A stretch of DNA of 64,000 nt from assembly GCA_943788985.1 (NCBI GenBank), contig CALSSJ010000023.1, positions 96,001 to 160,000 on the forward strand, in the 5' to 3' direction. Origin of the DNA: an uncultured Lentisphaerales bacterium (GTDB lineage: Bacteria; Verrucomicrobiota; Lentisphaeria; JABSQK01; UBA12247). The notes under the pieces were generated by a model. It was not told the origin of the DNA. It made no database searches and saw nothing but the letters and a program-made list of their open reading frames with translations. Positions 5,801-64,000 of the stretch are shown here, piece by piece (positions within the stretch are counted from its first letter, which is position 1; each line of letters opens with the position of its first letter). The translations under genes were made by a program, and so were the position numbers.

Positions 5801-5815
5801 GCGGCGGTTCTCCGA

Positions 5816-8210: not shown

Positions 8211-8218
8211 GACTGCGG

Positions 8219-12435: not shown

Positions 12436-12448
12436 GTGTGGCGCTCCT

Positions 12449-13744: not shown

Positions 13745-13746
13745 GA

Positions 13747-15471: not shown

Positions 15472-15477
15472 TCCGCG

Positions 15478-15999: not shown

Positions 16000-16001
16000 G
16001 C

Positions 16002-19025: not shown

Positions 19026-20412
19026 ATGAGGATGGAGAAAGATGCCCTCGGGCCAGTAGAAGTACCAGATGGCGCCTATTTTGGTGCGCAGACGCAGCGT
19101 GCCTGCGAGAACTTTCAGGTCGGAAACGAGCGCCTTCCGAGCGAGTTCATTCAGGCTCATGCCTTGGTCAAGAAAGCGGCAGCGATCGTCAATTGTGAGC
19201 TGGGTGGCCTAGATGCGGAGATCGCAACTGTCATTCAGGGCCCGCGGCTGATGAGGTGATCGCCGGGAAGTTCGACGCACACTTCCCGCTGGTGATCTGG
19301 CAGAGCGGCAGCGGCACGCAGTCGAACATGAATGTAAACGAAGTCATCGCGAACCGGGCGATTGAGATGATGGGCGGCACGATCGGGACCAAGTCTCCGG
19401 TGCATCCAAACGACCATGTGAATATGTCACAGTCCACTAATGATACCGTCCCGACATCCATTCATGTGGCCGCGGTCACGGCGATCGAGAACGACCTCCT
19501 TCCGGCGCTCAAGTCTCTCGCCGAAGTGTTCGAAGATAAGTCTGCGAAGTTCGCAGACATCGTCAAGATTGGGCGGACGCATCTGCAGGATGCGACGCCG
19601 TTGACTTTGGGCCAGGAGTTCTCTGGCTACGCAGCCCAATTGCGTGCTGCTGCCGGTGGTATCCAAGGCGTGCTGCCCCAGCTGCGTGAGCTGGCCGTGG
19701 GTGGCACTGCCGTCGGCACCGGTCTGAACACACGCACGGCCTACGCCACACGCATGGCAGAAGTCATCAGCGAGCTGAGTGGCCATGCCTTCGTCTCAGC
19801 CCCGAACAAATTCGCCGGGCTGGCTGCACATGATGCAGTCGTAGCCTGCTCAGGCTCGCTCAAAACGCTGGCCGCGGCAATGATGAAGATCGCAAACGAT
19901 TTGCGTTGGCTTGGCAGCGGTCCCCGTTGCGGCCTCGGCGAGCTACGCCTGCCCGCCAACGAGCCAGGCAGCTCAATCATGCCGGGCAAGGTCAATCCCA
20001 CGCAGTGTGAAATGGTCACTCAGGTAGCCTGCCAGGTCATGGGCAACGATACCACCATTACGATCGCTGGTAGTCAGGGAAACTTCGAACTGAACGTGTT
20101 CAAGCCACTGCTGGGCCCAACGCACTGCAGCAATCGATTCGGCTGCTTGCCACGGCCTGCGATTCTTTTGAGCGGCACTGCGTCTGCGGGATCGAGGCCG
20201 ATCGCAATAAGATCCAGGAGCATCTGACCAATTCATTGATGCTGGTCACCGCACTCAACCGTCATATCGGCTATGACAAGGCTGCGGAGATTGCACTCAA
20301 AGCATGGCGAGAGGAGCTGACGCTCAAGCAAGCTGCGTTAGCGCTCGAGTACCTGACCGACGCGGAGTTCGCAGCATGGGTTCGCCCTGAAGAAATGGTT
20401 TCTCCTACCTGA
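19026..20412 (+). CDS. fumC: Class II fumarate hydratase, with apparent frameshifts at ~19240 and ~20115
   Basis: '[18 protein letters not shown]', '[16 protein letters not shown]', '[12 protein letters not shown]' and '[15 protein letters not shown]'. The C-terminal '[18 protein letters not shown]' is in a third segment ending at TGA 20410-20412. Confidence 0.93.
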
Positions 20413-20433
20413 GAAACTGTATCGGAACCCTGA

Positions 20434-27909: not shown

Positions 27910-27982
27910 AGATTTTCCCATAGTTTTGTGTAGCAGAAAGCGCTGGCTTCGGGAGCCCAAGCGCGATGTAAAAACACCAACG

Positions 27983-28015
27983 AGCACCAATCCTCGCTGG
28001 GCGAAGATTGGTGCT
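27983..28015 (-). terminator. Long hairpin downstream of the giant gene, likely intrinsic terminator
   Basis: The minus strand reads AGCACCAATCTTCGC-CCA-GCGAGGATTGGTGCT (15-bp stem with one G-U pair), followed by CGTTGGTGTTTTT; it begins 30 bp after the stop at 28046. Confidence 0.65.
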
Positions 28016-28045
28016 GTTAGCGTTCAGCTCGAAGCTGGGTCGCAA

Positions 28046-28489
28046 CTACTCGAAGTGAATCACACGTTCCTGGTCGCTGTTGACCCAGTAGCCCTTCCCG
28101 GCCTTGAGCGGCAGCGGATCCGTCAGGTCGAGCGGGCGATAGCTCCCACGCGAGTACTCAGACACCTTACTAGGATCAATCCCGTCAGGCACTGCCATAT
28201 CTCGCGTCGGGCCAATCAAGTTCCAGCCTTCCTTGAGCACGATCGTCAGCGGTGCATGATAGCCACCGACCACGATTGTAGCCGCGATGTCACGTGGGTT
28301 AAGGACCCAATAGCCCTCGCCAGCACGAATCTCGGTCGCAGCGATATAGCTGCCGTTGAGGAAGGTCCAGGCGGCGCCACTGATAATGCGCCCGGTATTG
28401 TTGGCGAAGACCAGGTCTGGATCTGGGTCGTTAGGCGTGATTGGGAAGGAGATCAGGTTCCAGCCCGCATCCAGCGTCAGGCTAACGGT
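28046..28489 (-). other. C-terminal tandem 'GWNL' domain of the giant protein
   Basis: 'LTLDAGWNLISFP...IRAGEGYWV...IVLKEGWNLIG...LKAGKGYWV' immediately before the stop. Confidence 0.7.
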
Positions 28490-31400
28490 CCGGCTGCTCT
28501 GCGCAATCATCACCCGGAAGACGCGTGTCGTCCGCTCGGTATTCCCCGAGATATCGATGCCGACACGTCGCTCAGCCAACATATCCAGCTCCGTACCAGG
28601 GATTGGTGCGAAGTCGCTGTCTGGGTCTACTTCTACCCAAGTCAGCGGCAAGTCAGACCGTGGCAGCAGGATTGGGTCCCACTCGATGCGCACTTCTGTA
28701 GGCTGATCCCCAAAGTCAAGGTAGAGATACCAGGTCGCTGCATCGCCAAACGGACGCATGTCAAGGGACAGCGCGGAGTGCCCTTCGGTGAAGCCTGCAG
28801 AGAAGAAGCTTCCGGATGGCACACTGGTGCCGTCCGGTAGTGGGGTCGGTCCGTTGACGTTGCCGAAGAAGGCGGGAATGTTCAGCGAGGTGGGCAGATC
28901 CACATCAAGGTTTTCATCCCAGCCATGGCTTGCGCCAGCCAGCCAGCCAATCCCGACTGTCTGCGTCGGCGCTTCAGAGCCATCCCCAAAACGCTTGTCG
29001 ACGCGCAGGGTCGCAAGCCAGGCCTGCTGCTCAATCTCGACTTCAACACTGAGCGGACTGTCCGCACTTACTTCACCAGCCGGATTCCGTGCGAACACAG
29101 AGACCGCCCATTCCTGGCCAGCCTGCGTAAAGCGGTGGTCCAGGACACGATCCTCTGTGACCATGACCTGCACGCCGTCCACGTACCAGCGGTAGAAGAG
29201 CTGATGACCGGACAGCACCGTTGCTGGGTCTACGTCGGCGAAGAGATCGTCGGTGACCTGTGCGTTCGTGGGGCGCAGCACAGGCTGCGCTGGCGAGCTC
29301 ACGAAGACCCCTGGTACCGGGTTGGCCAAAACCAGGATGCCGTACTCAGAAGCGAGCGTACCAAACTGATGATGCGGGGCAACACGGATGTAGTAGGTGC
29401 CTGGGTCCACGACCACTTTGAAGCGGGCAGCCAGATTGAATTCCGGATGCGCGAACGAACGATAGTCATCATTGAAAATGATCGCACGCTCGAAATCGCC
29501 TTCGCTGTATAGCCACATGCGCGTATCAACGCCAAGATCCAGGCGCGTTCCAGTATCTCGGGCCGGATTGCGAATCCGCTGCTCGATCTCGTCCACGGTA
29601 CGACCGGTAGCGACTTCGACCTCAGAAGTTTGCAGAACTGTAAACTTCATCCAGTCCTCGTCTTCCAAGAAGAACGAGTGGGCCTGCCCTTCGAACGTAC
29701 CTTCCAGCGAAAGAGAATTGCCCTCTTCCTCGGTATTTTCGGTGTCTGAACCGGAATTGTTGTTGCTTTCGTTGGTGTTACCGGACTCCTCGACGGTGCT
29801 GAACCCACCCGACTGATCGCCGCTGTTCTCGTCACCGCCACCGCCGCCGCCGCCGCTACCATTCTCTTGGTCCGTGGAGCTGTTGAACACATCAAAGCCG
29901 TTGACCAAGATCCGACGCGCTTCCTGCGGTGTATCATTGGGCTCGTAGGTCTCGGCATCGATGACCAAGGAACTCGTTCCTTCTCCGCCACCTCCTCCGC
30001 CACCACCTTCGTCATCCTCGTTGGAACCGGGCAAGCCGAAGCCTGGGAAGACGGTGACTGTTTGGGACCGCGCTGGCTCGCTGCGGTTGCCGAACGTATC
30101 CACGGCCTGCACTTCGCAGTAGACCAGAACGCCTTCTAGACGATGATTCTCAGTCGCCAACATGGTGCTGATGATATTGCTGTCGATCGCAAACTCAACC
30201 TGAGCCTGGCCTGCGGTCAGGATGATACTGCCTTCAAGAATATCGCCATCGTCCGGCGCAAGTACGTCGGTACCAGTACCACTGAGCAAGTCGTCAAGTT
30301 CAGTGCCTGTCACGCTCGTGTCGACGAAGCCTGGGAAGCCGATCTCTTTCCGTCCGCCAGTTTCGATCACACCTTCGGTGGTTGTGCGCGAGCGGCGTTC
30401 CAGCTGTTGGTAGGTATTGGTCACACGGTTGAAACCGTACCACTCGAAGAAGTATGACACCACGTCCCCATCGGGATCAACGGCAGGCAGGGTGAGAACA
30501 CAACGAATGTCGTCGTCTTCAGCACGAGGCTGAGCCGGCTCGATCGCAATCGCAGGCGGCTCTGGCCGGCTGTTAGTGCCAACCCCGCCGCCGTGGACAA
30601 AGCTGTTGCTGTAGCTAGGAGCGCTGCGACGCCCGGTGGCGGTGTTGTTTCCGTCTACCTCATCGGTGACGTAAGCCTCCAGTTTGACCACATCACCGAC
30701 CCGCAGCTGCGCGTGACCATATGACAGGTCGACCAGCATTAGCGACCAATCCGTGATGGCAATGCCCTGGTTCTTGATCCAGCGCGTGAAGACATGGACT
30801 TGATCGCCGTCGGCGTCTGTAGGTTCGGTCGTCAGCGTGCCGATGTAATGCTCAGCGCGCTCATCCTCGTCCAGATCGGCCTGGGAGACCACGTACTCGG
30901 CTACGGTCGGCGAGCTTTGAGCGGCGTCTACAGTAACTGCTTCACTCCATACCCAAGTACTCGCACCACCGTCTTCATCCACGGCACGTACAGAGACGCG
31001 GTAGCTGCGGCTCCCGGCCTGTACGGTCCAATGACGTGCGGTTGCATCAGCAATGGGCTCCATGCAGGTCGTGTCGACACAACCTGCATCGTCGATGTAC
31101 CACTGATACTCATAGCTGAACATGTCACCATTCGGATCAAAGGCACCACGCGGGTGCGCGGTCAGCACGCTGTCCACACCAGGCGACTGCGGGTCAATGT
31201 CGACGATTAAGTTCATGACATTCGGCTCATCATTGGCTTGTACCAAGGTAGCCCGGGCATTGGTAGCTGTGGTAAGTTGCAAGGCATGTACCCAGCGGTC
31301 TGTATCGACCAGCGACTGCGACAGCAGGCGCTCGTAAGGCAGCCAGTCGGCATGCCAGACGAAGTCCTGAATGGTTGGTGTCACAGGGTTGACAACCCAG

Positions 31401-34400
31401 TTGCGACCGGAGGTCGGATCAATGTCCACCTTGTAGGCAGCCTCATCGCTGCGATAGATCGCACCGATGTAGGTGGTAGCCACAGCGTCTTCCGCGGCCT
31501 GGTCAGCGACCGTCAGGACCATTGGACCATCGTCGAACTTCAGGTACAAGCCCAGATTCAGCGGAGTTGCCCAGTCATTCACGCCTGGGAAGAAGGCATC
31601 CTGCAGGGTGACGTAGTCATCCCACATGTCCTCGGTTGCTTCCCAAGTCGCGTTGCTGTTGGTATCGCCAAAGTAGAGGGCTGCGAGGCTGCCCGGGGCA
31701 TCCTGAATCAACGTGCCATCATCGCTGGCGACTGTGAAGTCAGGAATAAGGACAACCGCTGCATTCTCGTCCACAGTCACTGTAGGATCATGAGAGCCCG
31801 GCAGGATCACAGTATCGATCACGGTTTCCTCAGTCTCCCCTTCGACGAGAACCGGTTCATCGTAGACGTTGTTACCATTCTGATCGATCCAGAGCCCCTC
31901 ATGTGCGTCGCGAGTCTGGTTCAAGTTTGCGTCAAAGTAGCGTGCCTGAGCCAGCAGTAGTCCCTGTGTACCGGCAGTAGTTTCCCACAGACCGTCGGTC
32001 GACAGCTGCGAGTCAATGCCTGGATCGTAGACGGATTCCTGTGGTACCAGCCCAGAACGGAAGGTATCGAGGTTGCCGAGCACAATCTCAACATCGCGGT
32101 TATAGGCTTCCTTGATTTCTGCCTCGGTGCGGACGTCACCCCAAATACGCACTTCGTCGAGGTCACCCACGAAGTTGTGTGTCGAGATGCTGTCGCTTAC
32201 GTCGTCTACATCTACCGATGCACCGATGCGGATCACGGCAAGCTTGTCGAGATCCTTCGGCTTGGCGCTACCGAAAGCATTGATGTTGCGAGCTACTTCC
32301 ACCCCGTTCACGTAAAGGAACATGGAGTTATTGGCAGCATTGAAGGTACCCAGAATGTGCGTCCAGACGAAGTTTTCGTCAGCGGATTGGATCGGCGTGC
32401 CAGCCTTGACCTTGCGGACAACGGTCGGCGTACTCCAGAGCACGTAAGGCCGCTCATCGGTATCGATACCGAGCTCATAGCTGATCACGTCAGCGTCTCC
32501 ATTCAGGCTCAGGGAGCGTTGAATAATGACCATTCGGCGGTCAGGATCGGCGTGAAGGGTCAGATCCAGCTGTGGACGAACCCAGGCTTCCACCGTCCAG
32601 CTCTCATAGCCGAGGCGCTGTGCGTCCGGATCGTCTTCCACGGCCACATTGGCGTCGGACTGGCCGATGTTCACCAGCGGCACGTCGAGGAAGGTCGCAC
32701 CATCCAGGTTCAAGACCAGGTTCTGCACCCCCTTGTACTTGAGGCTATTCAGCGGATCGCTAAGGAAGCCCAGTTCGGCGTCGTTGTGCTCGACGATGTC
32801 GGCGATGCCGTCATCATCAGTATCAGGCAATTGACGGTCGGTGTTCTGCTGAATTTCGTCGGTGTCAGCCACGTCATCATTATCAGTATCGACATCGAAG
32901 TTGTCAGCAACCCATGGGTCGGTCCCAGCGAGGTACTCGAGACGGTTGGTACGGCCATCCTCGTCAGGGTCACCGTCAGTTCCGTGGATGCCGGTGGCAT
33001 CGAGCGGGTCCAGCGAGACTGCGCTGGAGTTGGTTGAGATAACCTCCCAGCCGTCCGGCAGCAAGTCGCCATCGGTGTCAGGATTGCGCGGCTCTGTGCC
33101 ACGATTCTGCTCACCTGCGTTGTCCAGCGCGTCGTTGTCGGTGTCTTCCTCGCCGTCCAACGTACCGTCACCGTCGGTGTCGTTGTTGAGCGGATCGAAG
33201 GAGTTTGCAACTTCCCAGCCGTCCTTGAGCGAGTCACCATCGGTATCAGCAACAGTTGGCTTGGTGCCAAGCTGCAGTTCGCGAATGTTGGTCAGGTCGT
33301 CTGCATCCGGGTCGCCGTCTGCGCCATTGTCGCCGCTGGCGTCGTTCGGATCCAGGTCATTCTCGACCTCGGCCTTGTCGCCCATGGCGTCACCATCGCT
33401 GTCAGCGCTGGTTGGGTCAGTAGCATCACCCCAGAGACTGCGGTCAGATGAGCTGATCAGGATGGCTCCAGTGGAGCCCGCGAAGGCTGCCTGATTGTCA
33501 GCACCGAGGAACTCAGAGATGTTGTTCAGACCGTCACCGTCGGCGTCATCAAAGGCATCGTCGGCTTTTGGCAGCAGGCTGAAAAGGACTTCAAATCCGT
33601 CATCCATACCATCTGCATCGGTGTCACGATGCTGTGGATTAGTATCCGCGTCGTATTCCTGCAGGTTCAGCAGGCCATCGTTGTCCGGATCACCAGTTGC
33701 CCCGTTGTCGCCAGTGGCGTCGAATGGATCCAGGCCGTTGGCGTTCTCCCAGAAGTCGGGCATGCCATCATTATCGCTGTCCATGTCTGAAAGGTCAGGC
33801 ACTACCGTATCGAAGGCATAGTCGCCACGGCCCAAAGCGGCCACGGTGAAGTCATTCGGAATCGCGTGATCCTCGGCACCAAACTTGTGCTCGTAGGGCG
33901 GGTTGCTCGTCCCGTACTCGCCGTCATCCATGCGGAAGTAGCTGCTCAAGCCGTCTTCAGTCGCGGCCAACGTGGAGTCCTTAAGCCCATTGATCTGCGC
34001 CGTGCTGCGGGCTACGCTCCAAACTCGTACTTCGTCGATCAGACCTTCGAAGCCGCCAGAAGCTGCACCAATGTACAGGTCACCTGGCTTCTGATAAGGC
34101 TTGAAGCCTGTGAAGTTCACGGACTGCGAGCGACCGTTCACGTAGAGGATTAGACGCCCGGCATCCGGGTCAAGGGTACCAGCGATATGGGTCCATTCGC
34201 CCAGCTCTGCGAGGTCGGTTCCCACAATTTCCTGGTTTTCACCGAGGTTATCTGGCGTGTAGGAGACGTATGGGAAGCCTGCACGCAGACCCAGCTCGTA
34301 GTTCACAGCGTCAGCGACCAGCTGTACGCGGCTGTTGCTCGGCGCTTCGTTGGCCAGTGTTTCACCGCCAGCCAAGGTAAGGACAGTTGGTGTAACTTCC

Positions 34401-40400: not shown

Positions 40401-43400
40401 TCCGCATCCCAGCTGGCAGCCAAGTGATTCCAACGGCCAGCAGCAAGCGTCGTCTCTAACGTGGCGGTTACGCCGAGTACAGAGGCAACCGGGCTCCCGT
40501 TGTCGAGACCAAAGGAGAACAGGTCATCCTGCGGTCCGAGCAAGGTCAGGATGTCACCGCTTGCGGAATCGTTGGCAGCGTAGAACCATGCTTCAACGGT
40601 CCAGCTGTCGAGGGCGAAACGACTACCTTCGGGCTGCGGAACAACCAAACCAGCGGACTGCAGTGCATAAACCCGCGAAACTGCTGGATCGAGGCTGACG
40701 AGAGGATTGATCTCGTTGCCATCGAGCAGACCGTTGTCATCGGTATCCGGATTGTTCGGATGGGTGCCACGCAGTTGCTCGTTGAGATTGGACAGGTTGT
40801 CGTTGTCTAGATCGCGACGATCATCACGGATGCCGTCGTTGTAGGTGATCTGGTCGGTCGGATCGGTTCCAGCGAGCCACTCGTAGTAGTCGCTGAGGCT
40901 ATCGCCGTCGACATCCCCGGAGCCATCGCGGCCCAAGTTGCCGAAGAAGTGGAGTTCCCACCAGTCCGCCATGCCGTCGCCATCGCTGTCAAGGTTGACT
41001 GCGACTGGATTGTCACCAGAGACGCCATCGTTCGAGCCAGCGAAGGTTGCTGCGTGATGCCAGCCAGACAACCAGTCATTCACAGGCATTGCGAAGTCTT
41101 GGGCCGTAGTTCCGCTGTCATCGAAGCGATACAGGGCGACGAGAGCATCCGACCCGGTGTGGAATCCCTGACCGGTCAAGTCGCTTGTGGAGGCGCTACT
41201 CCAGATTGCGAGATCGTCCAGCTCGGCCGCCAAGCCTTCACCGACTGCCATGCTGCTCCAGCCAATCACGTCCGCGGCGGGGGCAATCCCGCTGGTGACG
41301 GTGTTTTGCAGCAAGCCATTGACCGTGATACTCAACTCGCCGCTCTCGGCGTCGTACTGAGCTGCTACGTGACTCCAACGTTCCGCAAGAATCGACGCCC
41401 CGGAGGTGGCGATCACGCTGGCGGAGCCGTGGTCTTCATAGCTGCCAGTAAAGCTGGCGTATGGCTGCAGGCTGCTGTTGATGCCCAGCTCATAGTTGAC
41501 GGAACGAGCGTCGTCATCGTCATGCGCATCGGCGATGCGGCGCGATACGATGATACCACCATCGGTATCGCTGGTGCTCAGCTTGATCCAGGTCTCCACG
41601 GTCCAGCTTTCAGCAAGGTTGAAGCGGCTCTGGTTTGGTACTGCTAGAGTGGCGCCTTCGGTCGGCAAGGACAGGACGCGAGGCACATACGGTGACAGCG
41701 GCTGGATCGGACTGCTGGTCACAGCATTGGCGAACAGTTCTGCATTGTCTTCAGCGCCGTCGTCATCCGTATCAGCAGCGGCATTCCACGGATCTGTGCT
41801 CTGGGCAGCCTCTTCGAGGTTGCTCAGGTCATCACTGTCAGGGTTACGCTGCGCATCGGAGGTGCCGTTGGTGGTCGCGTCGATCGGGCTGGTACCGGAG
41901 CGCCATTCAGCAACTTCGTCCAGGCCGTCGCCATCTTCGTCGTTCTCTTCTGCTGCGGTCGGATTCAGGCCGTAAGCGTGTTCGAACCAAGTTGGCAGGT
42001 TGTCGCCATCGAGGTCGCCGTGAGTCGGGGCAAAGCTGCTGTTGACGACCGAGGCACCTGTCAGCGTGGCTGCGTGGCGGGTATGACGCCCGCGCAGTGC
42101 CAAGGAGAAGTCCTCGGATTCGGTCAGGTCCTGCACGAAGGCAGAGCCAGCGATGGCTTCGTCAGCATTGAAGTAGGCGATCAGCCCGGTTGCTTCCACA
42201 GTCGCCAGCGCTTCGCCGAGGTTCAGCGTGGCACCCGTGAGAATGCGGCCGTCCAGGCTTGCCAGCGGCGTCGCCGTTTCGAGCAGGCGTGTCTTGATCT
42301 CGAGGAAGGTACGCTTTGGCTGCGCCGAGAGCAGCACAGCAGCAGCACCCGCGACATGTGGTGATGCCATCGAAGTGCCCTGCAGATTGTGGTAGCCACC
42401 GCCAAGGCGAGTGCTGTAGATCTCGACACCAGGAGCAGCGATGTCTACGGTGGTGATGCCATAGTTGCTGAAGCCTGCCATCTGGCCGTCACGGCTGATC
42501 GCTGCGACAGAGATGATGTTCTCTAGGTCGTAGCTTGCCGGGTAGGCTGGATTGGAGTCGTTGTTGCCGGCGTCGTTGCCAGCAGCAGCGACAAAGAGCT
42601 GGCCAACGGCCTGGGCGCGGGCGATCGAGTCGTAAAGGGCTTGCGAGAAACCGCCGCCGCCCCAGCTGTTGTTGGTGAGCGTGGCGCCCATCTGAACAGC
42701 ATAGTCGATGGCCGCGATGGCATCTGCTGTGGTCCCAGAGCCATTGTCACCGAGGAAGCGGAGCGCCATAATGCGCACGTTCCAGGCTACCCCGACGACA
42801 CCGACATTGTTGTCGCCCACGGCGCCAACGGTGCCAGAGACATGCGTCCCGTGCCCGTCCACATCCATCGGGTCCCCGTCGTCCTGGGCGAAGTCGTACC
42901 CGTAGACATCGTCGATGAAGCCATTGCCATCGTCGTCGATCCCGTTATCCGGGGTTTCGCCTTCGTTCTTCCACATGTTTGCGGCCAGATCAGGATGGGT
43001 GTAATCAACGCCGGTGTCAATGACCGCGACGATGACTTCGTGAGAACCAGTGTTTACGTCCCACGCTTCGGGTCCGTTGATATCCGTGTGCTCGAAGCCC
43101 TCGGTGACATTGTTCATGCCCCACAACTTGGCGAAATCTGGGTCGTTCGGCGTCCGAATCGCGGAGACGATGTAATTCGGCTCTGCGTATTCGATGTCCG
43201 CGCGGCCTTGGAACTCGGCAAGGGTTGCTTCCAGGGATTCGCCGTCGGCAATCTGTACCAGCGTGTGACCGGTGTTGAAGCTCTTGAGCGTGGCTACGCC
43301 GACCGTGGCGTTGATCGCGGCATGATCCTTACTTGGCACGCCGTCTGCATAGCGGACGATGATCTCATCGGCAGTGTGCTCTTGCGCGAGCATTTCAGTG

Positions 43401-46400: not shown

Positions 46401-49400
46401 CCCATGGCGCCTGCACGTAGCCGCTGCCGTCGAGCAGTAGCGCGTTGGCCTGGACAGGATCGAAGGCAAAGGCTGGGGCTGTGCCCTGTACGACTTCTGC
46501 ACCATCCTCAGTCCCATCATCGTCAGTATCGACCAGGCGCGGATCGGTGCCATGGAACTGCTCAACACCATTGTCGAGGTCATCGCCATCGCGGTCCTCA
46601 AAGGCATCGATGATGGTGTTGCCATCAGTGTCAGAAACGAGAGGGCTCGTGCTGCTGAGGAATTCATACAGGTTGGTCAGACCGTCGGAATCGAGGTCCT
46701 TGGTCGGATCCATGGTCAGGTCCCCGAAGCGCAGCTCGTACCAATCCTCAATCCCATCGTGGTCGCTGTCCGGTGCGCCGTTCAGCAACGGTGATGGATT
46801 GGTGGTCGAGAGCGCGTCAAGGTGGCCGTCGGTAAGGCCAGTGGCGCCAACGATCGAATCCCAGACCGCGTTGGTGCCCAAGTCAACCTGGGTATCACCG
46901 GCGTCATAGAGGCCGTCCTCGTTCACGTCCACAAACGTTTCGTCCTCGTCGTCCAAGTACAGATTGCCATTTACGTCGATGTACAGAATGCGCGCGCTGG
47001 CGGCATTCTCGATGCGGATATCGAGGCCAGTCAGGTCGGACTCCAAGACATCGGTCGCGTAGTCATCGACAGTTTCGCCACCGTCATCGAACATGTAGTA
47101 AAGAACCATAGCGCCAAAGAGCTCATCGGTGGCTGGAATGGCACGGAAGCGTTGAGCGTCGATCACTTTGTCGCTCAGCGCAGCGCGCCAGACCCGCACT
47201 TCGTCGATCGCCACACCCGTCAACGTGGTGCTGTTGTGTGGACCGTTTAGATGGGCAACACCACCAGGCGTAATATTCAATCCAGTGATGGACTTGCCGA
47301 CGCTGACGCCGTTCACATTAATGCGAATCTCGTTTGTCACCCCATTGAAGGTGAAGGCCAGATGGTTCCAGCTGTCACCAGCAAGCGCATGTTCCATCTC
47401 GAGAGTCTCATGGACGCCCGGAGCCAGCATAGTCTGGAAGTACGGCCGATTCTCGTTCAGGCCGACGCTGTAGGCGACAAGCCCAGACAGATTTGCGTAC
47501 TGGAACAAGGCACCGGACTGCAGAGCAGCAGTTGGCCGGACCCACATTTCAATGGTGAAGCCCTCGAGGGTGTTGGTACGGCGCACGAGCTCGGTGCCAC
47601 TGCCGGATACAGCGCGTCCAGGTGGGTTCATTGCACCGCTCGGCCAGCTGATGTCGGTCACATGCCACCAGGCTTCTTCGTTGGTGCCATTGCCATCGGT
47701 AACGCTCATGGTCGTCGGGCCAAACTCGACTAGCCGCTCGTCCGGCTGACCTTCGTGGACCAGCACGCGAATGGTGCTCTGCGGATCGCCACCGTTGCTG
47801 TAGTTGTTGCTCCAGACCTGATAAACGCCATCTTCAGCAGAGCCGGAAAACACGGTAATGTTCTCAGGGCCAGTGCCGCTAATGTCATCAATGTCGAGAT
47901 CAGAGCCCGGGATCTGCCCAGCATCAGTGGTCACGCCGTTGAAAACATCTGGGTACCCAGGGCCGAAGGTGGTCCAGCCCATGTGGCGGAATGTGGGGTC
48001 CACCAGCCAGGTATCCAAATCGCCGTTCACATCCCACGTCTGCGTGACGCGAATGTCCGCTTCTGCGACCGTGCTGGTGATGTTGACCGAGCCATAGCCA
48101 AATAGACCAGCACCATCTTCTGCTTCCACGGTGATCTCGTTTTCATTGGCCGCAATCACGATCGTACGGCTGAAGCTCTCGCCACCTGGGATCGAATCCG
48201 CCAGCAAGTTGTTCACGTAGAAGTTCAGTGCCACGATCGCAGAGGTACTGCTGGCCGTTCCGGTAACAGTCACAAAGCGATCGTCAATGCTGGCACCAGC
48301 GATCGGTGCGGTAATTTCCACCTGTGGGCCCAAGCCAGTCACTTCTTCTTCGACTTCAAGAAACGAGAAGCGCTCGGACAGAGGCAGCAAGATGCTGGAA
48401 CCATCTAGGAGCAGGTTACGAGACACGTACGGGGACAACGGCTCAAGCGCGCCGCTATAGACGGCACCCGGGTCAGCGAAGGCCATTTCCTTGCCGTCAG
48501 GCAACCCATCGCCATCCGAATCGGCCAGATCAATGCGTAATCCTGCATTCTGTTCAATGATGTTGGCGATACCGTCGCCATCGGTGTCTTCTTCGCCATC
48601 CTCAATCTGGTTGCCATCACTGTCCGTCAGGGTGGGGTTGAGACCAGCGAGGTATTCGTAGAGGTTAGTAAGTCCGTCAAGATCATTGTCTCCATCCGGC
48701 GTGGCCGAAAGGTCGCCGAAGTAGGTGACTTCCCATTTGTCGGGCAAGCCGTCCTCATCACGGTCTAGGACAGAGTCCTGGACTGGCCCATCGATCGTGG
48801 TTACGATCTCGCCGCCGTACAGAGTTGCCGCGTGGCTCCACTCCGCCAGCCAATCGGTCTGCGCTGTCGAATCCTGCGCGAATCGACCCACGTCATCGAA
48901 GCGGAAGTAGGCCACCAGGTTCGCCTCTCCGAGGTTGAGTGCGGCATCCCTGCGGTCCTAAGATGGTCGCTGGAGTCAGCGCCCCAGCCCACAAGCGCAA
49001 CTCGTCAACCAGGCCTTCGTAGGTCTCGCCTGCTCGAATTGAAATCGGACCTGGCCCCGACTGCGGTGAGGGAACGCCGCTGGTCGTTGTCGCGACGAGT
49101 TCGCCGTCCACGACCAGTGACAGGGTTCGGGTGGCGAGATCAAACGATCCAGCCACGTGGGTCCAGGTTTCGCCATCACGGGCAATCGCACTCAAGGATG
49201 TCGCAGAGATTTCGTCACCGCCATCGGCTTTCGTAAAGTAAACGGTGACCGTTCCGTCAACGTTCAGGCGCAGTCCTTTGCTGACGACTAATACCGGTTC
49301 GGTCCCGATCACACGTTGGAACAGGACACCGTCACTGTCCACATCCGGCCGGACCCACATTTCCAAGGTCCAGCTGGGCAGCGAATAGTCAGCAGAGTTT

Positions 49401-55400: not shown

Positions 55401-58400
55401 TTGGTTCGCAGCGCACGTTGCTCATGCGGAAGATTGGCGTCTTCGCCCTGTCCGTTCTCGCGGATCTCACGGGAATCGGCAACGCCATCCCCATCCGTAT
55501 CGACGCGCGATGGTGAGGTGCCCAAGATGCCAATTACTTCACCGTCGCCATTCAGCGCCAATGTCTGCTCGTCCAGGTTACGCAGGCCGTCTCCGTCGGA
55601 GTCCTCGTCAGCATCCAGGATGCCGTTGTTATTGCTGTCGTTCGAGAGCGGGTCGGTACCGAACAGCAGCTCAAAGTAATTGACGAGGCCATCATCATCG
55701 GAATCCGCAGCAGGTGCCGCCTGCGCGTCGTTCCGGTTCTCAAGGCCATACAGGAAGCGATGCCAGAGAAAATCGCGGGCGTCAACCGGCGGCTGAATGG
55801 TTTCCTCGCCTACAGCACCGTACACATACCACTCATTGCTTGGCAGACGCTGCTGGGCCAGTTCGCCGAATGTCGAGTGAAACTCAATTCCGGACACTTC
55901 CGTGATTGGAGCCACATCAGCCCAGCCGGCACCATCAGTTTGATAGACCGAGCAGTCGAAATGCCCAATGCCGTTCGCATTCGAAATCTCAACAGAGGCC
56001 CGGAGCCGCGGCGGGGGCTCGCCCTCGAAATCGAACGGAATCACCGTCATACCGGGACCATTGCCACGGTAGTTTGAGACCTGTTGGCCATTGCCGCTGC
56101 GTCGAACCAAAGACACTGGGCTGTCGATGGGCCAGAACAGGGAGTCCTTGGCCGGTAAACGGGTTCCGTTGATGTAGACATCTTCAATCGTACCATCATG
56201 CACGATGGCGATTTGGAATGTTGAACTGGTACTCACCCAACCGTTGCTGTAGTCGCGAACAAAGAAAGCGTTGTCGGGGCCTTGGCTCAGAACATGCGTA
56301 TCAACGCCTTGGCTACCGAACGGCGTGTTGCTCAGGCGCCAGCCCTTGGGATAGGCCTGGTAAGCGCCGAGGAAATGGAATTCTTCCCACCAGTCCGGCA
56401 GTCCGTCAAAGTCAGAGTCGTCGGCCGGAGCCCGGAACTCACCCGCGGAAGGCTCGGATCCAGCGGGTGTACCCAAGATAGTTGCCGCGTCCAGCGAGAA
56501 CCAATCCGCCGATCCGTCTCCGTCAGTATCGATCACACCAAAGTCTGCCGCTACAATCGCAACCGCCTGGCTCACGGTTAGCCCGCGGTTTGGCACGGTG
56601 AAGTCCTCAATGCTGAGGCCACCATCATCAAAGCGATAGTGCGCTGCAAGACCGGGGGTGCTCCCTTCCAGCAGTAGCTCGCGGCTCGTGCCAATAATTT
56701 CCCCGAATGTACGCAGCGTTGTCCATAGACGCACGTCATCAATCAGCCCTGAGGTAAGGACACGGTCTCCGTCGTCGGTCCCGGCGCCACCCAGGTAGGC
56801 TGCAGAAAGCGCACCGGTAATGCGTCCATCGGGCATGGCCTGTGCAAATTCATTCAGACCATCGATCAACAGCGTAATGCTTCCTGCCTGTTCATCATAG
56901 GCAGCAGCCAAGTGATGCCACTCGCCCTCTTGAAGGACGCCAGCGACGCCGTCGCCACCGGCTTTGTATTCGGCCATGGTTTCGGATTCGAATCGAGCGT
57001 AGGGCCGCCCGTCCTCAATACCGAGCTCGAGGATGGCGCCGCCCCGGATGTCCAAGACCTTCTGGGAGACGATCGCACCGTCCGCATCGTTGCCACGGTT
57101 GAACCACAGTTCGATGGTGGCAAGCCCCGCAGCGAAACGACCACGACGGGGCAATTCAATGCCGCTCCACTGGCGGTTGAGGCCGGTCATTCCAGCCGCC
57201 GCAACTGATAGGTCCAGGCTTTTGGCCTGGAAATATGGTTGTGCCATCGAATAACGTGGGCTGGTCCGGTGCTGGTGATCATCACGAGCATACTCGCCCA
57301 GATCGCCGTCTCGATAGCCGTCGTCGTCTGTATCTTTTAGGTCAGGCCGGAGGAGACGGTCCATCTCTTGCCCGTTCGACAGTCCATCGCCATCCTTATC
57401 TTCGTCGGCATCATTGATACCGTCAAAGTCGGTGTCTACATGCAGTGGGCTGGTGCCCGACCAATACTCGTAAGCATTGCTCAGGCCGTCACCGTCTTCG
57501 TCAAGATCCCGGTCCGCAGCAGATGCGGGGCTATAGCCAAAGCGAATTTCCCAGAGATCCACAATGTCGTCCCCGTCTTCATCCAGCAGTGTGATGCCGG
57601 AGCCGTCAATGATGCTGGCGCCATTCAGCAGCGTTCCGGCATGGGACCACTCTGTGAGCCAATCACTGTCAATGGTAAAGTCTTCGACGCCAGGCAAGCT
57701 CTGCGAGCTGCTGTCGTCGGCCCGGAAGTAGGCGACGAGCCCGCCAGCGGACGTGCCAATGGCACCTGGCAGGTTCAGCATCCCACCAGTGCCTACGCGC
57801 CCGTCGAGGGCCGGAAGCGCTACAACACTGCCCAAGAGAGCTGCCTTGACGGCCGCATAACTGCCGCCGGGCCGACGGGCGTAGACCATGGCGGCAGCAC
57901 CCGCAACATGCGGGCTGGCCATAGAGGTACCACTTTTCGTTCCGTACTGATCGCCGGGTTCTGTGCTGTAGATGTCGACACCCGGGGCACCAAGATCAAC
58001 CGTGGCTACCCCATAGTTTGAGAAGCCCGCCAGGTTGCCGCTGGCATCGATCGCCGCCACAGAGACGATGTTTTCGACCTCGTAGTTGGCAGGATAGAAC
58101 GGATTGGCATCGTTGTCACTTCCATTATTGCCAGCTGCAGCCACGAACAGGCTGTTCGCATCGCGAGCCCGGGTAATGGCATCCTCCAGCGCTTGGCTAA
58201 AGCCGCCACCGCCCCAACTATTGTTCGTCAAGGTTGCGCCGTTATCGGTGGCATAATCGACGGCGAGAATCGCACCGGCAGTGGACCCGGAGCCGGAAGC
58301 CCCCAGAAACTTGAGTGCCATGATCCGCACGTCCCAGTTTACGCCTACGACACCGACACCGTTGTTGCCGACGGCACCAATGGTACCAGCACAATGGGTA

Positions 58401-61400
58401 CCGTGGCTATGGTCGTCATCAGGATCACCATCATTGTTGACGAAGTCGTAGCCGTGGACATCGTCGATGTAGCCATTGCCATCATCGTCGATTCCATTCC
58501 CCGCGATTTCGCCGGAATTCACCCACATGTTGGCGGCGAGGTCCTCATGATCCCAGTCCACACCCGTGTCGATGACACCAACGATAACAGACCGTGCTCC
58601 AGTAGAAATGTCCCACGCTTCGGGAGCATCAATATCGATATCGTCCACACCACCTGTCTGGCCGGTGTTATGCAGACCCCAGAGGCGGTCGAAAGAAGGA
58701 TCGTTGGCTTGACGGTTGATCGAAATCACGTAGTTGGGCTCGGCGTAGCGCACGCCTGGCGTGCTGCGATACTGGAAGATCTTTTCCGCCAGCTCGCTGC
58801 CGTCCAGAATTCTTACCTGCTGCATACCCGATTGCGACGTTGCCACCACTTCCACGCCCAGCTGTGCCTGAATATCAGCACGAACCTCGGCAGACACCGA
58901 ATCGTCAAATCCAACCAGCAGTTCGTCGGCGACATGATCATGAGAGAGCATTTCGGCAGCAGCGATTGGCGCAACGTTGCTGAAGGAACGACGCGGTAGT
59001 TCGGACCCGTAGCCCTGCGCAATATCAGTGGCAGTGCGTGCTGCTGCCCAAATGCGTACCTCGTCCATCAAGCCACCAAAATAGAGGTCGCTGTCGCTCC
59101 CGTCCCCAATGCCGTCCAGCGGTCCACCGACACTCACGCCGCTGGCGAGGCCTGCAGCGTGGTTGGCAAGCACGGTCAACCGCGAACGCTGGGCAACTAG
59201 GTCTCCAGCAACATACAGGTTCAATTCCCCTGTCTCTGGCTCAAACGTGGCAGCAACATGAGTCCACGTTTCCAGTGGAATGAGGAATGAGCTGTCTTTC
59301 AACCAGACATGCCAGACACCCAGTGCTGGGTCGTGCGTCGTATTCGCTCCGACCGAGTAGCTGCGGATGCTGCCATCAGTTTCGCGATTGTCGAAGCGTG
59401 CGTATGGCACCAGGGCCCCTGACTCAAGACGCAGACCCAACTCGTAGTTGAGATCGCCGTTGCTCAGTAGATTGGTGATCAACACACCACCATCGTCTTC
59501 GCCGACTGCAGGCTTGATCATCGCTTCCACAGTCCACGCACTCAGGATATGGCGTGTCTGGTTGGGCACAGCCATCCGGTCATCAGTACCATCGAAGGAG
59601 AGGACGCGCTGATAGATCGGGCTTAACGAATCGGTTGGATCGCTGGTGAGGTCCTTGGTGTCCTGCGTCGTGGTTTGCCCATTGTAGTCGTTCGCGCCGG
59701 TTACTTCTTCACCGTCTGTCAGCCCGTCGTCGTCGGTATCGACCACGAGTGGAAGTGTCCCGTGCTCCTGCTCCTGCAGGTTGGTGAGTCCGTCGTTGTC
59801 CAAGTCACGCTGTCCGTCATCGATGCTGATATTATTCGTGCGAACCGCATTGGGATCTAGCTCAGCGAGATACTCATAGCGGTTGGTCAGCCCATCGTCG
59901 TCTGGGTCGCCAGTTCCATCATAGGCTGTGGTGCTGCCAAAATGGGCCAGCTCCCACGCATCGGGCAAGCCGTCGCCATCGCTATCGGCGGATGGCAGGC
60001 GGACGGGAGCGCCGTCAGTAGTGATGGAGGCGTTAACCAGCGTTGGTGCCCCCTTCCAGCCAGTCTCCCAGCCCGGGCTGTTGACACCGCTCATGTCCTC
60101 AATCCAGCTGCCACCGTCGTCGAAGCGGAAGTAGGCAACCAGATTGCCCGAGCCTGTGAGTCCGGCGCTGCCCAAGCTTCCGCCAGGAACGGGAACAATG
60201 GCCGTGGACCAGAGGGCGACCTCGTCGATCAAGCCCACAAAGTTCTCGCCGACGCGCTGCACGGGCGCACGACGTACGTCTACGGTGTTCGACGTCAGAC
60301 CGGTTGCAGGCGCAGTCCAGTCAGCAACCCCGTTCACATACACGGTGAGCTCCTTGGTCGTGTGGTTATAAGAGCCAGCTACGTGCTGCCAGGCGCCAGT
60401 AGGCAGAGACAGATTGCTGGTCGCCGACCGGGCTACACCATTGCTGTCTTGAAAGCGGGCGTAGACCTGGAAGTTGTTCAGGCCCAATTCGTAGTTGGCC
60501 TGCCCGGCCGTTGTGTTGTCTGCATCGGCCAGATCGTCGATCAACGTGCGGCGCAACAGCACGGCATTCCCGTCTTCTGCACCCAACTTGACCCACATTT
60601 CAATGGTCCAGCTGTCATCGAGTTGATAGTCGAGTGTTGTAGGCAGGCTCAAATAGCCACCGCCGTCCAGCGAGAGAGCGCGGTTGGTGAATGGCACCCG
60701 TGCATCCAATGGATCCTCATCCGCACCATCCTCAACCCCATCGTCATCGGTGTCAGCCAGATCGGCACGGGTGCCGCGTAGTTGTTCAGCCAAAGCGCTC
60801 AGACCGTCGCCATCACGGTCTCGACCGGCGTCTGAGATATCATCGCCGTCGCTGTCTACCGCTAACGGGCTGGTACGATTGTAAAACTCGTGCAAAGCCA
60901 GCAGTTGATCACCATCGTCATCTGTGGCTGCGCCTAACCCGGTTGGACTCCCAGAATAGAGGTCCTCGTACCAGTCGGAGATTCCGTCGCCATCGGCGTC
61001 ATCCGCTGCGATCGACCACGTGACGGCGTTTGCAAGACCGCCAGAGACATGGAGAGGTGCATTCGCTTCGATCACGTCTCCGCTCTCAACCGCTACGACA
61101 TAATCGTAGGGGCTGTAGGCAACAGACTCGCCAGCGACCGTTGGGCTTGGGCGCTGATTTGTAGCCGAACCGGGTACGTGGTACAGCTGCCAAGCAAAGT
61201 CCTCCACCGTGACACCGCCGTCATCGAACCGGTAGTAGGCGACCAAGTCCTGCTGATTGGCCTGAACATAGCCCAAGCGACCAGCGTCCAGTTCTTCTTG
61301 TGAGCGAGCAACAGCCCAGACACGTACCTCATCAAGGCGGGCATCAAGGGCATCGCTACCCATGCTAGCGCCAAACTCGGCAAAGGCATCGGGGGCGGTG

Positions 61401-64000
61401 AAGGGTGCAACACCGGCGAGCAGAGGTGCGTTCGTATTTTCAATTTCTGTCGCGTAGTCGTAGACAGTCACGCCATTGACGGTGAGCGTCAGCGTCTCGG
61501 CATCAGCATCCCAGGCACCGGCCACATGCGACCACGTGCCAGCCACCAAAGGCAGCTGGCTGGTGACGCGGTAGGAGATGAATACCGGCGGATTGCTGTT
61601 GAACCAAACGTATGGCTTGCCAGCGGCCAGGCCCAACTCATACTGAACCGCACCATTAATCGTGCTTTGCAGAATGCTGCCGTCTTCCGTACCCGTGTCG
61701 GGTTGGACCCAGGCTTCGAGCGTCCAGCTTCCGGCCAACCGGTCGAACCGATCCGCCAGGGGCAGGGTAACCTCACCGGAAACGCTGACATCTAGCGCCC
61801 GCCCACGGACGTTGGTACCCGACATGCTGAAGCCGGGGTGGGTAAGATCGTCATCCGTTTCGTTCGCGTCAAATTCTTGGCCGTCCGGAATGCCGTCATC
61901 GTCAGTGTCTGCCAGATCGGTACGCGTCCCAAGGGCGGTTTCCTCGACCTGAGTCAGGCCATCACTATCTTGGTCATTCCGCAGGGCATCCTCGTCGGAA
62001 AGAACCGTGCGCCAGGTACCAGCAACGTGTGGAATTGCTGCGTGCCGCCAGCCTTCGAGGTAGTCAATGGCCTGAGCGCTGTCTTCAGCTGTCTCACCGC
62101 CATCACTCAGTCGGTAGAAACTCGACGAGGCGCCGCCTCCGCCGACCTGGGCCGCGATACGCGCGCTCAGGGTCTCGAAGATTGCGGAGTAGTCGTCGCT
62201 GTTGATGAGTACTTCAAGGCCACCGGTGGCGGCCACCAGTTCGGTCACGTCTGGGTTGGTGGATGGGTTGTGGATTGCGTGCAGAACCACTCTGTCAGCC
62301 TTCATCCGCGCAATCACATCAGCGCGGGATTGAAGCGCGCCGCGGTCGCCGTCTTCCGTGTCCTTAATCGGCGCATCGGTCACCAGAATCAGAACCGGCG
62401 TGGCATTGGAGCGAAAGCCATTGGTGGTAAACTGATCACCATCCAACGCTACCGTGATGCCACCGAGGCCGTCTTCCGCCCAGTCGCCACCGCCCTGCAG
62501 GGGAAGCGGAGTCAACCAGCCGTCAAGAAATTCTTGGGCCGTGCCGTAGAGGCCTGCACCATCGGGGGCCGTGTCCCTGAACCCACCACCGGTCAAGGTG
62601 TCGCTGTAGCGGATGCCACCGATGAGTACGTCCAAATTGCGCGCTTCCAATTCGGTGACAAATGCTGCCACGTTGGTCTTGACCCGGGTGATCGGCCCGC
62701 CCATACTGCCGGAAACATCAATCACAAAGACTAGGTCAACCGCGCTGGAGGAGCGCTGCTGGCCTGAATCATACCACGTGTAAATCGCGGTATCTTCCAT
62801 CGCACCCGCGTTAATACGCAACTCACTCATGCGGCCAGCGAACGCTTCGCCTGCGTGGGTTTCAACCGGACCAGCACCGGAGGTAGCCGGTATATCGGCG
62901 GCAACCCCAAGCTCGATGGAGTCAACCATGCGCCCGTTGCGGTACTGCGTCATTAGGCCGGTCTCGCTGTTGAACTGTAGGGCCACGTGCGTCCACTGAT
63001 TGAGCGGCAGGGCCTGGGTGTCGGTGGTCCCGTATTCGGCGTTGCTTTCTTCGCCATGCACCAGCGCATATGGAATATCGGCAGCGTCCACAGCCAATTG
63101 GAAGCTGTGACGTCCTGCTCCTACGCTGCGGCGTACAATCGTGGCCGGGCCAGATGCGGTCGGATAGACCCAAACACCAACCGCGACAGAGTCCGTCACA
63201 TGGTTTAGGCTGCTGGGAATCTCCAGATAATCACCGGCAGCCAGCTCGAGAACGCCGTTCGCAGGGCGAACCGGGCTGTCCGAACTGAGCGGATTGGAGT
63301 GGCCAATGACTTCGTTGGAATCGGTCACTTCGTCATCATCCGCATCGCTGGTCCATGGCAAGGTTGCAAAGCGCTGCTTGTCGAAGTTTGTCATGCCGTC
63401 GGCAGCTGCAGCCAACTCGTCTCCGTCAGCCGTACCATCGCCATTTGTGTCGGCTTCCAACGGATTGGTGCCTGCGTAGAATTCCCACAGGTTTGTGAGC
63501 GTGTCGCCGTCGGGATCTTCCTGCCCATCGGAGATCTGGTTGTCATCCGTATCGGCGACAGTTGGATCAAGTCCGAGCAGATGCTCAAAGTAGTCTGGGA
63601 GCAGATCTTGATCGCTGTCATCCACAGAGCCGGCGGCCGGCACAAATGGTGCGAACTCAGTAGAGGTCATGGCACCGGCCGTGACCGGGAGAGCCAGATC
63701 GTCGTTCGCCACGTTGGCGAAGTCGCTGGCAGCAGTGCCGCCATCATCGAAGCGGTAGTTAAGCAGCAATCCGCTGGTACCAGCCGCCTGCAGTAGGCCA
63801 GCCGCGTCAGCCAGCTCAGCACGGAGGCGTGCCACATTCCAAACCCGAATCTCGTCGACAAAACCAGAGGTCAGCTGATGACCAATGCGGAGAGTCCCTA
63901 GGCCACTGACTGGTGATACTGTGGCAAAGCCAAAGTCATCACCAATGCGGCTCACAACCTGCGCGTCGACATACAGGTGAAGCTCCTGTGCGGGGCCATT
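28046..64000 (-). CDS. Giant multidomain surface/secreted protein (at least ~11,980 aa, 5' end outside the window): LamG + TSP3-like repeats, vWA, two S8 proteases, YfaP-like, Ig-like, PPC-like and GWNL C-terminal domains; interrupted by two indels
   Basis: Three overlapping ORFs (48893-63955, 44902-48915, 28046-44926) share one repeat grammar. Both junctions fall in the middle of a LamG domain and are repaired by a small indel. The frame is open to 64000 (NGPAQELHLYVDAQVVSRI). Confidence 0.88.
29040..31200 (-). other. Four Ig-like repeats plus a PPC-like (EPND) domain and Gly/Ser/Asn/Glu low-complexity linkers
   Basis: Recurrent 'D(P/A)(D/N)GD..SY.(Y/F).W' strands in three of the repeats, with 'FYRWYVDG' in the fourth. 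Also 'YEPNDTPQEA...DEDWMKF...DTRMWLY...NDD...PGTYYIRV' and poly-Gly tracts. Confidence 0.65.
32790..33787 (-). repeat. Longest block of TSP3-like acidic Ca-binding repeats (DxDxDG(L/M)xDxxE....(T/L)DP)
   Basis: More than ten consecutive motifs such as DSDNDGMPDFWE, DPDNDGLLNLQE, DTDADGMDDGFE, DTDGDSLKDGWE and DTDDDGIADIVE. Similar blocks separate all the LamG domains. Confidence 0.85.
42205..43380 (-). other. S8 subtilisin domain 2 with N-terminal pro-domain
   Basis: Catalytic triad VIDTG (D ~43017), HGTHVSG (H ~42852) and GTSMASPHVAG (S ~42372); oxyanion AAAGN; pro-domain ending 'IEYAEPNYIV'. Confidence 0.95.
47641..48330 (-). other. Ig-like domain plus YfaP/DUF2135-like domain
   Basis: 'PQVEITAP..GA.I....VTVTG....NEITVEAED.AG' followed by 'DIRVTQTWD..GDLDTWLVDP...LDIDDISGTGPENI.......GVYQVWSNNY'. 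Confidence 0.75.
57760..58940 (-). other. S8 subtilisin domain 1 with N-terminal pro-domain
   Basis: Catalytic triad VIDTG (D ~58569), HGTHCAG (H ~58404) and GTSMASPHVAG (S ~57924); AAAGN; pro-domain ending 'VRYAEPNYVI'. Confidence 0.95.
62160..62740 (-). other. von Willebrand factor A domain
   Basis: 'VDLVFVIDVSGSM' (MIDAS DxSxS), 'GGGDWAEDGL', 'FRSNA..VLILVTDA' and 'ELVAATGG'. Confidence 0.9.

Follow-up and report, generated by a model that had tools for sequence, protein, structure and literature searches.

Three long open reading frames (ORFs) abutting on one strand raise the question of whether they are separate genes or pieces of a single very large one and, if so, what such a gene could be for. 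We took up this question for a window of 64,000 nt (the whole stretch of DNA analysed; G000:C23:96001-160000, i.e. contig C23 of genome G000) from an uncultured Lentisphaerales bacterium (GenBank assembly GCA_943788985.1, contig CALSSJ010000023.1). Its minus strand carries ORFs of 5020 residues (48893-63955, open to 64000), 1337 residues (44902-48915) and 5626 residues (28046-44926), which an earlier note on this DNA had read as one giant gene of more than 36 kb. The analysis below confirms this reading and extends the gene, whose product appears to be a chain of LamG domains and acidic repeats with protease zymogens set inside LamG domains and a shared module at its C-terminus. Coordinates are window positions unless given as genome:contig, and the features that bear on the reading frame are as follows.

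28046..64000, minus strand: giant gene, 3' part, ~11,980 codons (from ORF calls, read-through and public contigs)
48954, no strand: break 1, a single extra base relative to public contigs (X4 and X7 contigs, whole depth), inside LamG unit 23 of the contig part
44959..44960, no strand: break 2, two extra bases relative to public contigs (X4 and X7 contigs, whole depth), inside a LamG unit
27970..28022, minus strand: strong hairpin and T run just 3' of the stop codon, intrinsic-terminator-like (-42.1 kcal/mol, z -7.7)

Reading frame and extent of the gene

Contigs from 4 of the 24 listed sequencing runs were compared with window positions 30001-50000, namely X4 and X7 (DNA, two different studies) and X16 and X18 (RNA, covering neither break). 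The contigs of both DNA runs lack one base at 48954 and two bases at 44959 at whole depth, so that the frame is kept. The remaining indels listed against the run contigs either preserve the frame (21 and 3 bases) or offset each other, bar one X7 contig, which tells against an intact frame with four single-base insertions at 45811-45817; four further indel rows also lie outside that listing. The assembly is indel-prone, as frame changes were found in 7 of the 24 ordinary genes comparable with relatives (10 shifts per 31,068 aligned bases). Because the breaks split LamG units, two DNA runs are in frame there and ordinary genes are frameshifted too, we read the three ORFs as one gene and both breaks as assembly errors.

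The gene is larger than the earlier note had claimed. Past position 64000 the frame stays open for 4,994 more codons, up to the contig end (G000:C23:174982), and the uninterrupted first frame amounts to 10,029 codons. Read through with X at both breaks, the part of the gene on this contig (the contig part) encodes 16,977 residues of ~1.8 MDa. No two of its internal DNA copies exceed 72% identity, which excludes assembly duplication as the origin of the repeats. The hairpin behind the stop codon was matched in stability by 0 of 200 shuffles. Twenty runs contain the stretch, all but one labelled as marine, plankton, estuary or salt-marsh metagenome, the exception bearing the label of a coded organism. 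Contigs of the RNA runs cover 30 of 30 bins (X16) and 23 of 30 bins (X18); coming without strand, level or silent control, this coverage is not taken to show transcription. At 48660-48820 substitutions relative to the X4 and X7 contigs are densely clustered, and X7 has two alleles in part of that patch, which marks a divergent allele inside the giant gene.

The contig end cuts the gene within its repeats, and a candidate for the N-terminal part was found on contig C16, which besides the window's own contig holds the sole giant-type matches in the genome. The 3' end of C16 has the repeat grammar of the giant gene and breaks off within the first quarter of a LamG core, and the start of C23 falls in the last third of one. 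The C16 gene (G000:C16:41532-54547) starts at 41532, where a GAGG site and a sequence resembling a signal peptide are found, and is heavily frameshifted, parts of the frameshifted stretch lying outside the Pfam scan described below. It includes a YCF48/BNR-like domain and a matrixin with a zinc motif, and the four best matches of the LamG domain bearing this matrixin belong to the unit class that carries S8 proteases on C23. A later C16 domain matches the giants of four related genomes (G002, G012, G014 and G038). We therefore infer a join, and hold it highly probable that C16 and C23 are one gene of ~64 kb and ~21,000 residues.

Several results weigh against this join. There is no suffix-prefix overlap between the ends of C16 and C23. 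An exact 25-base search of metagenome contigs found no bridge between them, and a protein search for one gave distant TSP3-type matches only, near-identical records possibly lying outside both searches. The N-terminal piece of C16 matches one relative only, and weakly (E 1e-5). A likeness by eye between C16 and the N-terminus of the G002 giant was discarded, as tblastn, genome search and phmmer all failed to confirm it.

LamG backbone and the site of the embedded proteases

For domain assignment the protein was cut into 30 pieces and scanned against Pfam at family cut-offs, absences being judged at E <= 0.001. A profile built from the gene's own repeats gave 36 matches on the contig part, two of which are halves of one domain, leaving 35 LamG units; 23 of them lie inside the window, the first partial, as the earlier note had counted. 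Laminin_G_3 reached its cut-off in 26 of the 30 pieces and TSP3_bac (PF18884) in 6, and the contig part holds 109 DxDxDG motifs. The chain is strongly acidic (D+E 16.6% vs K+R 4.6%), nearly free of cysteine (0.1%) and, with a best 19-residue hydropathy of 1.62, has no transmembrane segments. Also at or above cut-off were Peptidase_S8 (twice in the window and once beyond), VWA and Big_7. Most of the earlier inventory (acidic DxDxDG blocks, a vWA domain with its metal-ion-dependent adhesion site (MIDAS), Ig-like domains and two full S8 proteases) thus stands; the places of the YfaP-like and PPC-like domains were seen too, but both assignments remain below cut-off (DUF2135 E 0.089, PPC E 0.06). 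The domains located in the window are listed here.

62186..62737, minus strand: vWA domain with MIDAS motif (DxSxS), inside a LamG unit, core-to-last-strand gap 239 residues (Pfam E 4e-8)
58733..58951, minus strand: Fervidolysin-type (I9-like) prodomain of the first in-window S8 (Pfam E 3.5e-11)
57758..58705, minus strand: S8 catalytic domain 1, triad and oxyanion Asn intact, inside a LamG unit, gap 448 residues (Pfam, motifs)
47623..48327, minus strand: Ig-like and YfaP-like pair interrupting a LamG unit behind its first strands (Pfam, DUF2135 below cut-off; site read from the translation)
43175..43384, minus strand: prodomain of the second in-window S8 (Pfam E 1.3e-6)
42212..43150, minus strand: S8 catalytic domain 2, triad intact, inside a LamG unit, gap 454 residues (Pfam, motifs)
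29378..29662, minus strand: PPC-like domain, weak (below cut-off; Atlas lead score 0.90)
28499..28960, minus strand: conserved beta-sandwich domain preceding the tail (no family match; best fold Z 5.3)
28049..28498, minus strand: two-repeat 'GWNL' domain (named after its motif), which may act as a non-covalent surface anchor or as a sorting tag (profile, model)

A tree of 34 LamG units, with two partial matches left out, resolved five starred clades that correspond to a five-unit block repeated three times, and the three block copies carry different inserts or cargo. A second Ig-like and YfaP-like pair lies beyond the window and is 55% identical to the one inside it. On this evidence the backbone is a chain in which LamG units take turns with DxDxDG (TSP3-like) blocks and which has expanded through duplication of blocks, and the fold family of the LamG units suggests binding of glycans or proteins as their predicted function. 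No glycosyl hydrolase, glycosyl transferase, dockerin or SecA-like domain was found in the 30 pieces. Binary_toxB (below cut-off) and, in relatives, Toxin_R_bind_N were considered as toxin domains and rejected, the matches coinciding with acidic repeats and LamG-like folds.

All three S8 copies, the third lying beyond the window, have the Asp/His/Ser triad and the oxyanion Asn, exceed the cut-off of PF00082 and are directly preceded by a PF22148 prodomain. The closest solved relative of the first in-window copy is deseasin MCP-01 (PDB 3VV3; E 8.5e-115), aligned from its mature N-terminus. Where these domains sit in the chain was read from the distance between the LamG core and its last strand. 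This gap is 30-41 residues in 15 of the 22 LamG units with both motifs located, and it is enlarged to 448-454 residues in units with an S8 protease, 239 with the vWA domain and 207 with an unassigned insert; the C16 matrixin occupies the same place, with a gap of ~430. In all 6 chains whose start is intact the array opens with a core, and in 5 of the 6 whose end is intact it closes with the strand motif; for this reason the strand motif is assigned to the core before it. S8, vWA and matrixin are accordingly placed, as judged from motif order, at one fixed site of LamG units, before the last strand. The case is weakened by the pattern search, which missed one or both motifs in 14 of 36 rows, and by gaps of 68 and 135 residues that it leaves unexplained. 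The strand that follows each protease may physically complete the LamG sandwich.

The same context recurs outside this genome: all seven S8 domains found in five genomes of two orders keep the triad, a prodomain-type stretch and the LamG insertion context. C-type lectin domains of relatives follow the last strand and do not occupy the insertion site. When the LamG-S8 unit was searched against a protein database, mostly unrelated S8 proteins were returned, and among the matches listed only 1 of 120 spans the whole unit. Subtilase propeptides are described as chaperone and inhibitor, removed on maturation (PMC10580911), and activation of the embedded S8 domains should therefore nick the chain. 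With the zymogens inserted inside LamG units, self-cleavage of the chain and digestion of outside substrates are in our view equally likely roles.

The C-terminal GWNL domain and routes of export

A GWNL...GYW unit, present twice, makes up the last 150 residues of the giant. Searching with a profile of the C-terminal region gave matches to 10,617 clusters (E <= 0.001). Of the 150 top matches examined, 144 contain the GWNL unit, and in 135 of these its end lies no more than 60 residues from the C-terminus. The tail is matched at E <= 1e-5 by 29 ORFs of this genome, 26 of them within 15 residues of the stop and none with a C-terminal helix; it ends 25 ORFs besides the giant, and 16 of 20 scanned carry Ig-like, cadherin-like, FG-GAP, beta-helix or protease domains. 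The giant chain itself has a single tail module and no helix in its last 60 residues. The tail is present in 19 of 20 relatives of six families (f2, f3, f5, f6, f8, f10) and in 0 of 20 of five others (f4, f7, f9, f11, f12), a distribution obtained with a single query that can miss distant copies and from relatives related by descent, not independent; all 13 genomes with a strong match to the giant also carry it.

No consistent Pfam match was found for the tail among 93 members, nor an NCBIfam match in the last 384-630 residues of the giant. The tail model, with a predicted local distance difference test (pLDDT) value of 96, shows short-stranded beta domains. It gave no Foldseek match at E <= 0.001, and the best hit of a fold search among 48,161 chains reached Z 3.9 (root-mean-square deviation 3.1, 69 aligned). 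The last two domains of the chain thus have no clear fold match and no convincing sequence match to solved structures, which does not imply a new fold.

The T9SS (type IX secretion system) C-terminal domain, SLH, dockerin and cell-wall-binding repeats are short modules shared by unrelated exported proteins. The GWNL domain resembles them as a short C-terminal module on many unrelated proteins of one genome, and differs from the T9SS domain and from known non-covalent anchors in having no Pfam or NCBIfam match. In records of the Fibrobacteres-Chlorobi-Bacteroidetes (FCB) group it stands, by eye, upstream of a T9SS-like tail and does not replace it, and in archaeal and Chloroflexota records it ends proteins. 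Its placement in the FCB group and its archaeal and Chloroflexota occurrence make a non-covalent anchor preferable to an outer-membrane signal, and the domain is likely a surface anchor. A crude N-terminal hydrophobicity test counts against this reading in showing no enrichment among tail-bearing ORFs (3 of 18 positive vs 321 of 826 controls), many of these frames being cut by frameshifts.

Several known routes of export and anchoring were looked for. Por_Secre_tail and TIGR04183 were not found on the last 384-630 residues (Pfam, NCBIfam). PF11751, searched for as a sign of PorP and thus of T9SS machinery, had no match in the genome, which is 83.6% complete, nor in control genomes, which makes the result uninformative. 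RTX adhesins carry nonapeptide repeats near the C-terminus and autotransporters a C-terminal beta-barrel; no RTX nonapeptide-repeat match was found in the 30 pieces (Pfam), and no autotransporter beta-barrel match with Pfam or NCBIfam. A Sec-type start, as the signal-peptide-like sequence of C16 suggests, is likely. A link between secretins and the giant or its tail was set aside as anecdotal: secretin genes adjoin giant or GWNL-tailed genes in two cases, yet 41 of 41 genomes have secretins, every tail-less genome among them. One case is L201 (G000:C5:43183-57372), where, with gene labels assigned by eye, a GWNL-tailed protein of 2,278 residues with trypsin and cadherin-like domains is flanked by a secretin gene on one side and by PilM/N/O-like and ATPase-like genes on the other; a further GWNL-tailed protein, of 4,112 residues, follows. 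The other is L018 (G035:C1:1593958-1601406), where the G035 giant gene begins ~4.6 kb downstream of the secretin gene of a pilus-like operon.

Other GWNL-tailed frames are also large. L208 (G000:C18:116240-135715) is a second one in this genome, of 6,492 residues with Ig-like, FG-GAP and cadherin domains, and further GWNL matches fall in frames of 13,986 residues (G007:C4:93921-94322) and 7,165 residues (G035:C1:2039476-2039895). Nearly the same GWNL-tailed ORF stands at two contig ends of this genome, L207 (G000:C23:299-1309) and G000:C27:1-432, owing to a recent duplicate or to overlapping contigs.

Elsewhere in the window, a zinc-peptidase gene (18305-18960) and a fumarase-like lyase gene (19028-20420) are each frameshifted, probably through assembly errors.

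9573-16616, minus strand: V/A-type ATPase operon
3997-9406, minus strand: S-adenosylmethionine synthetase, PfkB kinase, S-adenosylhomocysteine hydrolase, elongation factor P and a class II synthetase-like gene, after the ATPase operon
2908-3867, minus strand: IS200-like transposase, weak match (E 3e-5)

Relatives, known systems and the proposed role of the protein

Homologous architectures, for which the earlier note had proposed a search, were found. A LamG-TSP3 query matched 22 of 41 genomes; 13 of the 40 relatives matched at E below 1e-20 and 8 weakly. Open giant frames reach 17,083 residues in G035 (assembled as one contig; its giant is broken once more near the 3' end), 16,552 in G014, 13,069 in G002 and 12,587 in G012 (cut by the contig end), and the giants of G002, G014 and G038 run from a signal-like start through to a C-terminal region like that of the window gene. 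The best named matches to this region are Lentisphaeria, Lentisphaerales, Victivallales and Oligosphaeraceae records (including those of the Atlas), and the class of the relatives is probably Lentisphaeria. The family spans at least two orders, with lengths from ~6,300 to more than 17,000 residues, and is retained as a 19 kb gene even in genomes of 2.1-2.4 Mb. Four genomes of that size (G015, G019, G023 and G038; L031-L032) have one or two GWNL matches each, the best in the giant frame (~6,300 residues in three of them). Near-identical tandem units in the G035 giant gene (L016-L017, G035:C1:1561687-1573707) indicate recent expansion.

The cargo varies from one relative to another. One S8 domain each occurs in G012, G014, G029 and G035 and C-type lectins in G002, G029 and G035; the G038 giant starts with a C10 protease, which has an I69 prodomain. 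In the complete giant of G002 no protease was detected by Pfam or motif, a result that counts against a proteolytic core function and from which we take proteolysis to be inessential to the family. As the proteases vary and one relative has none detected, the scaffold is the core of the family.

No description of this architecture was found in the literature, although giant-protein catalogues in supplements could list members; the earlier judgement that it is not a characterised system holds to that extent, giant TSP3-rich proteins of the Planctomycetes-Verrucomicrobia-Chlamydiae (PVC) superphylum having been described. The nearest are the Omnitrophota giants, which are described as exceeding 10,000 residues, with TSP3 repeats, embedded peptidases proposed to process the chain and a proposed attachment role (10.1101/2023.11.21.568195; 10.64898/2026.06.07.730766). 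The window giant shares superphylum, size, TSP3 repeats and embedded peptidases with their Dockerin-type and Archaeovorin members. Unlike them it has a LamG backbone and a GWNL end, and no dockerin, glycosyl-active enzyme, SecA-like domain or transmembrane helix. In these accounts, Dockerin-type giants have a C-terminal transmembrane anchor followed by SecA-like domains, both absent here; the many transmembrane segments and the glycosyl transferase/hydrolase, methylase and NUDIX domains that characterise Archaeovorins were likewise not found in the window giant. The terms laminin, LamG and Lentisph- are absent from the main texts of both papers. A UniProt survey of huge proteins (PMC11573180) names Lentisphaerae among the phyla richest in proteins of more than 5,000 residues, reports no COG assignment for the Lentisphaerae proteins, and gives Laminin_G_3 as the commonest domain of archaeal huge proteins, which mostly have one or few LamG domains vs 35 in the window giant; that survey text describes no family of the giant's architecture.

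LapA-type RTX adhesins, SwmB and halomucin are very long, repetitive, acidic, calcium-binding surface proteins, the LapA type also carrying vWA domains. The giant differs from them in its lack of an RTX match, likely Sec-type start, embedded zymogens and different tail. Its S8 units share catalytic domain and upstream prodomain with the fervidolysin-type enzymes and with deseasin MCP-01, a marine collagenolytic protease (PMC5691207). Those are free multidomain enzymes, whereas the three zymogens of the window giant lie inside LamG units mid-chain of 17,000 residues. What is new beyond the earlier note, on our reading of the sequence, is this placement of zymogens inside LamG domains together with an uncatalogued shared tail. 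The term 'GWNL' was absent from the 20 papers listed of 1,441 matching a literature search.

We lean slightly towards the following account: a Sec-exported, Ca2+-stiffened, tail-anchored fibre with binding units and zymogens that nick the chain on activation. A single strongly acidic polypeptide of at least 17,000 and probably ~21,000 residues would cross the inner membrane by Sec, Ca2+ would stiffen its DxDxDG/LamG chain into a long fibre and the GWNL domain would hold this fibre on the cell. Estimated from the number of units, its length would be roughly 200-300 nm. The LamG and vWA domains would bind particles, matrix or cells, with proteases carried at intervals. Each S8 would remove its own prodomain, as subtilases do, and the backbone would be nicked. 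As the last strand of the host LamG domain follows the protease, the two sides may stay locked together, or may part and shed the distal piece; with either outcome the anchored stub would retain an active protease. Of the 'bind-and-digest' filament that the earlier note had proposed, an exported, Ca-binding surface scaffold with proteases remains the best reading, and the digesting role stays a conjecture, with no protease detected in the complete giant of G002 and a C10 protease in place of S8 in G038.

The protein could instead be a plain giant adhesin or spacer, one that serves through its LamG/TSP3 length and binding, with proteases as occasional passengers that allow detachment or shedding. 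We regard this as rather unlikely: the differing cargo, the range of lengths and the recent tandem expansion in G035 would fit it, but triad and insertion site are kept in seven of seven S8 domains over two orders, and this genome retains three S8 proteases and probably a matrixin. A polyprotein, cut by its embedded proteases into subunits for a coat, sheath or matrix or into diffusing enzymes, is distinctly unlikely. Prodomain removal by the subtilase route of PMC10580911 necessarily cuts the backbone, and the idea has also been raised for the S8 and C39 domains of Omnitrophota giants (10.1101/2023.11.21.568195); against it, one tail module serves the entire chain, the cuts would land within LamG domains and not between them, and one relative (G002) is protease-free.

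A device for predation or antagonism, binding prey cells and degrading their surface as supposed for the Omnitrophota giants, has in its favour the common superphylum and the TSP3 repeats and peptidases common with the Dockerin-type giants. It is very improbable here, given the absence of transmembrane segments, of glycosyl hydrolase, transferase, dockerin and SecA-like domains (by the scan above) and of any sign of a predatory host. The two frame changes in the window, the many more in the C16 part and the one near the G035 3' end could each point to separate genes (three in the window), to programmed frameshifting or to a pseudogene in decay; these readings are barely tenable and already largely refuted by the in-frame DNA contigs of two studies, the splitting of LamG units at the breaks and the frameshifts in ordinary genes of the assembly.

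The anchored, self-nicking fibre leads to a wider picture that we offer tentatively and hold to be doubtful. Part of the Lentisphaeria may possess an undescribed surface-display system in which dozens of exported proteins dock via GWNL, the giant, as the largest of them, being a self-nicking, strand-locked mast of ~2.2 MDa with interchangeable cargo. Complementation between beta-strands would hold this fibre together once activation of the zymogens has cut its backbone. Giant proteins of the PVC superphylum are recognised and mostly unexplained, and a giant LamG-TSP3 family has been hidden among them by fragmented or frameshifted assemblies. Its LamG-plus-zymogen unit of 690 residues is a small expressible piece that lends itself to the question of whether a protease can become active within a chain that stays in one piece. 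The tail of 150 residues may serve bacteria and archaea alike as a general surface anchor, judging by the number of clusters that match it. If the fibre digests particle protein, it would let a marine bacterium keep both its enzymes and their products near the cell.

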